Notes under the pieces: model-generated
The model's database searches: none
The model's input: only the letters and a program-made list of their open reading frames with translations
What the model was told of the DNA's origin: nothing
From: Escherichia coli
GTDB taxonomy: Bacteria; Pseudomonadota; Gammaproteobacteria; Enterobacterales; Enterobacteriaceae
DNA length: 64,000 nucleotides
NCBI RefSeq assembly: GCF_048403405.1
Contig: NZ_CP183129.1
Reading direction: 5' to 3' (one strand)
Program-made: the position numbers and the translations under genes
Shown here: piece after piece, positions 62,777 to 64,000 of the stretch
How positions within the stretch are numbered: the first letter of the stretch is position 1
How the letters are laid out: the number at the start of each line of letters is the position of its first letter

Positions 62777-64000
62777 ATGAAAAAACGTATCCCCACTCTC
62801 CTGGCCACCATGATTGCCACCGCCCTTTATAGTCAACAGGGACTGGCAGCCGACCTCGCCTCACAGTGCATGTTGGGCGTGCCAAGCTATGACCGTCCTC
62901 TGGTACAGGGCGATACCAATGACTTACCCGTGACTATCAATGCTGACCACGCGAAAGGGGACTACCCGGATGACGCCGTGTTTACTGGCAGCGTGGATAT
63001 CATGCAGGGTAACAGCCGTCTGCAGGCCGACGAAGTGCAGCTCCATCAAAAGAGGCACCAGGACAACCGGAGCCGGTACGTACCGTTGATGCGCTCGGTA
63101 ATGTCCATTACGACGATAACCAGGTGATCCTCAAGGGGCCGAAAGGCTGGGCGAATCTGAACACCAAAGATACCAATGTCTGGGAAGGTGATTACCAGAT
63201 GGTGGGTCGTCAGGGCCGCGGTAAAGCGGACCTGATGAAACAACGTGGCGAAAACCGCTATACCATTCTGGATAACGGTAGCTTTACCTCCTGTCTGCCG
63301 GGTTCTGACACCTGGAGCGTGGTAGGTAGCGAAATTATTCATGACCGCGAAGAACAAGTTGCGGAGATCTGGAACGCCCGCTTTAAGGTGGGTCCGGTAC
63401 CGATCTTTTATAGCCCCTATTTGCAGTTGCCGGTGGGTGACAAACGTCGCTCTGGTTTCTTGATCCCGAACGCCAAGTACACCACCACCAACTACTTTGA
63501 GTTCTACCTGCCATATTACTGGAACATCGCGCCAAATATGGATGCCACCATCACGCCGCATTATATGCATCGTCGTGGCAATATCATGTGGGAGAACGAA
63601 TTCCGCTACCTCTCCCAGGCGGGCGCTGGCTTGATGGAACTGGACTATCTGCCTTCAGATAAAGTCTATGAAGATGAACACCCGAACGATGACAGTTCAC
63701 GTCGTTGGTTATTCTACTGGAACCACTCCGGGGTCATGGATCAGGTGTGGCGTTTCAACGTCGACTACACCAAGGTCAGCGATCCTAGCTACTTCAATGA
63801 TTTCGATAACAAGTACGGTTCCAGTACTGACGGCTACGCAACGCAAAAATTCAGCGTTGGCTATGCGGTGCAAAACTTCAATGCCACCGTTTCAACCAAG
63901 CAGTTCCAGGTCTTCAGTGAACAGAACACCAGTAGCTACTCGGCAGAGCCGCAGTTAGACGTTAACTACTACCAGAATGATGTTGGTCCGTTTGATACAC
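62777..64000 (+). CDS. lptD: LPS assembly outer membrane protein LptD (Imp), 5' part; reading frame broken by an apparent -1 frameshift near 63048..63051, LptD sequence continues in frame 1 to the window end
   Basis: Track ORF 62777..63127 matches LptD to ...EVQLHQK then diverges to a stop; manual translation from 63121 in frame 1 gives [26 protein letters not shown]... open to position 64000. Confidence 0.9.

Follow-up and report, generated by a model that had tools for sequence, protein, structure and literature searches.

The lptD locus in the window

The window, that is, the whole stretch of 64,000 nucleotides analysed here, is a piece of the E. coli chromosome extending from aroP to lptD, the latter being an essential gene in E. 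coli. At the end of the window, lptD was found in two pieces on the + strand. The 5' piece (62777..63127) is a 116-aa open reading frame that starts with ATG, encodes LptD residues 1–92 (MKKRIPTLL...ADEVQLHQK), continues with a 24-residue out-of-frame tail, and ends with a TGA stop at 63127. The reading frame is lost at a run of four A (A4) at 63048..63051, within the window sequence ...gctccatcAAAAgaggcaccagg... (wider context, ...gtgcagctccatcAAAAgaggcaccaggacaacc...). This run consists of five A (A5) in relatives, and a single base is missing here. The remaining part of lptD (63052..64000, +) is read in the -1 frame and encodes LptD residues 93–408, with 316 codons free of stops up to the window end. 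With the NCBIfam LptD equivalog model NF002997, the 5' piece was aligned to profile positions 1–104 and the 3' piece to positions 93–406 (E = 4e-173); thus, the break was placed at position 92/93. The first-pass annotation had described the frame opened at 62777 as lost at the A4 run and closed by the stop at 63127, the rest of LptD as open in the -1 frame to the window end, and the break as lying near codon 92; the translation agreed with it, and every detail was accurate.

A Dcm methylation motif, CCAGG, follows the A run at a distance of 6 nt (63058..63062). In the frame read from 63052, a GTG at 63124..63126 (+) is the earliest start codon. In assemblies with the A deletion, gene callers begin a 668-aa C-terminal LptD fragment at the GTG at 63124. 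A restart downstream of the break could not give any signal-peptide-bearing product.

The window was compared with its close relatives. The homologous region was annotated as lptD in strains TUM14771 and 4621. The nearest complete relative, strain 4621 (a blood isolate from Houston), was separated from the window by only 3 SNPs over the 64 kb besides the one A, and it carried A5 and an intact LptD of 784 aa. Compared with TUM14771, the window differed at 12 SNPs, by one copy of a tandemly repeated 11-bp unit, and by the missing A of lptD. Four more best matches besides TUM14771 also carried one extra base at the A run. Within the window, lptD was otherwise identical to the intact alleles of 4621 and TUM14771. 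The alignment to lptD of closely related genomes, which had been proposed earlier as a check, accordingly returned A5 in both strains, and adding one A restored lptD exactly, as had been predicted, since this base was the sole lptD difference from 4621 and TUM14771.

The window contained 225 other homopolymers of at least five bases, including one A9, six A7, and seven T7, and all of them had the same length in 4621 and TUM14771. No other indel error was found at these 225 runs in the 64 kb, and no difference between the window and its close relatives was located at a methylation motif. Since the other 225 runs agreed with the relatives, a generically noisy assembly was excluded; general homopolymer noise as the source of the missing base was rejected on these runs and on the few SNPs. 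Within this tight clone, the deletion is thus seen once only, at the tip, and the surrounding stretch is otherwise clean.

Several smaller differences were observed along the window. In the intergenic region between sgrR and espY2 (43419–43442), a single 11-bp unit ATCGTCTGATT is present in the window, against two tandem copies in TUM14771; 4621 matches the window in copy number. The gene espY2 (43570–44139, -), encoding a T3SS effector, has a strain-specific L106F caused by a SNP at 43824; the exact EspY2 L106F protein was absent from the large assembly collection, in which the common variant was found in 1,467 blocks. An IS3-family element (approximately 60280–61632, -) occupies the interval between rluA and djlA and is 1.1 kb upstream of lptD. 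In 4621, the sequence is identical and was annotated as an IS1397 transposase, intact and with a programmed frameshift, and the element in TUM14771, one SNP apart (window position 60781), was annotated as a pseudogene with an internal stop.

Recurrence of the A4 allele in other assemblies

To determine the occurrence of the A4 allele, a 61-mer centred on the run was searched for with an exact match required. Among the 5,426 RefSeq complete E. coli genomes searched, lptD was exactly single-copy in 5,425. The exact A4 61-mer was present in five of these 5,425 genomes (YSP8-1, C51, 98889, HS-01, and UID2309220007), which were unrelated to one another and came from China, Russia, Egypt, Indonesia, and Thailand. 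In all five, lptD was labelled as a "frameshifted" pseudogene. YSP8-1 had five further frameshifted genes within 30 kb, and in C51 surA was frameshifted too; in 98889 and UID2309220007, lptD was the sole frameshifted gene within 30 kb. In every RefSeq search (lptD, surA, secA, or rsmA), 3 of the approximately 5,425 single-copy chromosomal loci were found on records labelled as plasmids, which were presumably mislabelled replicons.

In a larger assembly collection, the exact 116-aa product was found on 303 contigs, and its alternative-start version on 74. All listed members of the 90% cluster of the 116-aa product changed frame between HQK and RHQ, and several members had a second error adjoining the downstream CCAGG. 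The carrier loci that were compared (L003–L027) were 95–99% identical to the window, and none was from its lineage. An apparent lptD split on a metagenome scaffold (L026, ENA ERZ28588983) was due to an N run over the site and not to an A deletion; rsmA and folA were also split on this scaffold. A scan of metagenome contigs for the A4 allele and the wild type returned neither, the wild type being absent too. The literature on the carrier strains and accessions and on lptD homopolymer frameshifts was also searched, and nothing usable was found.

Most carrier loci had several to 132 frameshifting coding indels within 20–30 kb. These indels recurred at surA C6, rapA C5, pdxA C4 and A6, folA CCCAGG, and polB T6, and many of them adjoined CCWGG. 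On locus L001, the recurrent deletion sites are at 22646 (surA), 14120 (rapA), 27323 (folA), 24058 and 24309 (pdxA), and 25278 (rsmA); each of them is either outside the window or intact in it. Three carriers of the K-12 lineage (L019, L021, and L022) were compared with MG1655, which has A5 where they have A4. In L019, 15 of the 23 differences from MG1655 had a GATC or CCWGG no more than 8 nt away (background, 16%; p = 1.4e-7). In L022, this was the case for 8 of 17 differences (p = 0.003), and L021 had three other homopolymer deletions. Modification-induced nanopore read errors at methylation motifs have been documented, and errors clustered at such motifs are a nanopore signature (PMC11610603).

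Two carriers arrived at this truncation by distinct DNA changes within one 20-nt stretch. L006 has a net -1 garble of AAAAAGAGGC to AAAAAAGAC, and the net -1 garble of L020, CACCAGGAC to CACGCGAC, is inside the Dcm motif. A miscalled difficult signal would give such garbles, and replication slippage would not.

In-silico deletion controls and sequence context

As controls, one-base deletions were made in silico at other runs, and the exact truncated products were looked up. For the essential genes secA (A5) and folA (CCCAGG), the deletion products were found on 27 and 232 contigs, respectively. The product of deletion at a second A5 in lptD, at codon 357, was found on 17 contigs, and that of surA A5 on 11. 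The rsmA A5 product, from a site with the same 10-mer CAAAAAGAGG as lptD, was found on 105 + 6 contigs, the rapA C5 product on 542, and the surA C6 product on at least 1000.

For each allele, the collection blocks were then sorted by the length of the longest contig carrying it, and the share between 20 kb and 1 Mb was taken. This share was 3.2% for the 116-aa lptD product, and 2.5%, 5.9%, and 4.2% for the in-silico deletion products of folA (106 aa), secA (271 aa), and rsmA (144 aa), respectively. For three real alleles, it was 72% (FtsQ V52), 71% (the common EspY2 variant), and 45% (the DH10B RapA fragment). Contigs with the four frameshift alleles were two-peaked in size, being either below 10 kb or above 1 Mb, and the three real alleles peaked at 20–200 kb. 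We read the two-peaked profile as that of noisy long reads assembled into fragments in one pipeline and into whole chromosomes in another, the sequencing technology of the carriers being taken from the size of their contigs and not from metadata. Short-read isolate assemblies typically give contigs of a size class in which the A4 allele was almost missing. Even with all 12 mid-size blocks of the lptD product counted as real, the ratios of the real alleles would predict only 0.3–2 real cases among the 37 blocks above 1 Mb. Accordingly, a given long-read A4 allele would be real with a chance of at most 6%.

Five control A runs with one base removed gave no exact RefSeq match each, against five for the lptD site. 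These controls were lptD A5 at codon 357, surA A5, lptD A6 at codons 2–3, secA A5 with CCAGG 5 nt further on (0 of 5,422), and rsmA A5 with the identical 10-mer (0 of 5,425). The comparison site surA C6/CCAGG gave four matches. In the larger collection, the two sites sharing CAAAAAGAGG had 303 (lptD) and approximately 111 (rsmA) contigs versus 11–27 at the other A5 sites, the rsmA count ranking second among the A5 sites examined. A sequence-context effect at CAAAAAGAGG is thus suggested, to which the adjoining Dcm motif may add; the CCAGG downstream of the A run is a possible contributor to nanopore miscalling. Dcm adjacency was not supported as the sole cause, since the secA A5, 5 nt from CCAGG, was hit in none of 5,422 RefSeq genomes and on 27 contigs. 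The 10-mer as the sole cause was only partly supported by the rsmA site, with approximately 111 contigs and no RefSeq match in 5,425 genomes. The secA and rsmA controls each fell short of the lptD frequency, and neither factor taken singly accounts for it in full.

Interpretation of the missing base

Taken together, the A4 in lptD is very probably an assembly artefact, namely, a recurrent and context-specific under-call of one base. The first-pass annotation had preferred a homopolymer sequencing or assembly error, and this preference was borne out by the A5 of the relatives, the recurrence in unrelated lineages, mainly in long-read assemblies and frequently beside other evident errors, and a contig-size profile like that of the in-silico deletions and unlike that of the real alleles. 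It can be refined in one respect. Rather than striking homopolymers at random, the error falls on an A5 run that is a site-specific hotspot, in a window that is otherwise clean. The real lptD of the strain would very probably be intact, with A5. One A in CAAAAAGAGGCACCAGG would have been under-called while a long-read-based assembly was built or polished, as the purine-rich run together with the adjoining Dcm site would make CAAAAAGAGGCACCAGG hard to call. The assembly of the window presumably made the same error as other public assemblies, and the outcome would be an apparent -1 frameshift at codon 92 without biological consequence.

The case resembles the consensus homopolymer errors of long reads (Oxford Nanopore R9.4.1/R10 and PacBio CLR) in that the deletion in an A run splits a conserved gene and recurs in assemblies with contigs above 1 Mb that have other such errors. 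Published long-read assemblies have an A/T deletion bias, with 1 to more than 10 errors per 100 kb (PMC11170131), and one such deletion in the 64 kb of the window is within the published range. Unlike typical homopolymer errors, however, the affected run is only five bases long, and longer runs in the window (A9, A7, T7, A6, and T6) are correct; the lptD error is tied to its particular sequence context and not to how long the run is. The case also resembles the nanopore errors at Dam (GATC) and Dcm (CCWGG) methylation motifs, as a CCAGG is 6 nt off, the error of L020 is inside the motif, and the errors of the K-12-lineage carriers are concentrated near GATC and CCWGG. It differs from them in that the matched secA A5 near CCAGG was affected approximately 10 times less. 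With the current super-accuracy model, accuracy within CCWGG is approximately 99% (PMC11610603). The cleanness of the window would be consistent with good polishing that left a few difficult sites uncorrected, and it gives no direct support to an artefact. A short-read-polished assembly should have corrected the A5 run, which counts against an artefact.

A real deletion, leaky or complemented, is improbable, even with all its forms taken together. It is very unlikely that the A4 is real and the strain survives through an occasional -1 ribosomal slip at CAA_AAG_AGG, which would supply a low level of wild-type LptD. In this slip, the lysyl-tRNA on AAG (63050–52) would move to AAA (63049–51) with the rare AGG waiting in the A site, and decoding would go on with GAG GCA..., giving the exact wild-type LptD (HQKEA...). 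The slip of the AAG-decoding tRNA would restore LptD without any substitution, and of the tetramers in E. coli, A_AAG shifts most readily, reaching 5.6% with a strong pseudoknot; tetramers without a stimulator, however, reach approximately 0.15% versus a background of 0.11% (PMC4066793). No stimulatory RNA structure was found downstream of the A run, the 97 nt at 63044–63140 folding at -24.9 kcal/mol, which equals the mean of the shuffled sequences (z = 0.00). The site reads U_CAA_AAG, and so it provides the tetramer A_AAG only and no X_XXY_YYZ heptamer. A conserved two-frame arrangement was also not found, as 5,420 of the 5,425 RefSeq genomes lacked the A4 61-mer, and the close relatives were all in frame. 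The site thus shares with the -1 frameshifting of IS3/IS911 transposases and dnaX the A_AAG tetramer and a slip that would yield the protein, here LptD, but, unlike them, it has no heptamer, no downstream structure, no conserved arrangement, and an expected efficiency close to background.

The distribution of the allele bears on the same question. Survival by slippage is favored by the clean remainder of the window, by the two RefSeq genomes 98889 and UID2309220007 with the A4 as their only frameshift within 30 kb, and by L018, which differs from MG1655 by the lptD A deletion alone over 17.6 kb. L018 is not unique, however, as other in-silico deletion alleles were found on Logan contigs of 13–24 kb. 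The near absence of the allele from contig sizes of the short-read type, and the small number of blocks above 1 Mb expected to be real, also count against a real slippage-sustained allele. Moreover, a real slippage mutation would be expected more often in rsmA and surA, which are non-essential, than in lptD, and the opposite was seen. As for L018 itself (Logan SRR28534803), its contig of 42,638 bp, common to three samples, is from a laboratory strain of the DH10B type with a cra-rapA deletion, presumably the classical ara-leu deletion known from DH10B/MC1061; a contig of 42.6 kb is in the usual size class for DH10B-type strains. A variant of this explanation, in which natural and laboratory E. 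coli tolerate the A4 via lysyl-tRNA slippage on C_AAA_AG with the following AGG and recurs because of selection for low LptD, such as escape from LptD-dependent phages or peptides, is likewise very improbable.

That the deletion is real but recent, being present in a culture subpopulation or compensated from outside the window, through either a suppressor or another copy of lptD, is highly improbable. It would fit a change that, within a very tight clone, is seen only in the window (3 SNPs per 64 kb separate it from 4621). All 5,425 RefSeq genomes with a match had one lptD locus, however, and a lethal subpopulation variant should not win the consensus. We know of no bypass of Lpt essentiality in E. 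coli. A recent variant would also leave the loss of the same base in hundreds of unrelated assemblies unexplained. The classical viable allele lptD4213 (imp4213) is likewise an lptD lesion carried by living E. coli, but it is an in-frame deletion of 23 codons from which protein is still made, unlike the frameshift at codon 92, which leaves no signal-peptide-bearing full-length product. Finally, a true decaying lptD pseudogene in the lineage, for which the RefSeq label of the same allele in five genomes could be cited, is effectively ruled out, as no further lesion was found in lptD within the window, both halves being otherwise identical to the intact gene of the clone-mates. The single-copy, essential nature of lptD also counts against it.

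With the assembly artefact as the preferred explanation, the A5 run in CAAAAAGAGGCACCAGG is a recurrent source of a false frameshift, found in five RefSeq complete genomes and on hundreds of contigs. Thus, an apparent lptD pseudogene broken at codon 92 should be treated as a quality-control flag for the assembly and not as a finding, and the surA C6, rapA C5, and folA CCCAGG sites can be used likewise as assembly flags. As biology, the deletion is most likely unimportant, and the strain almost certainly has a normal lptD. Should reads confirm the A4 in a viable clone, lptD would offer a rare example of an essential gene of the outer membrane sustained by unprogrammed ribosomal slippage.
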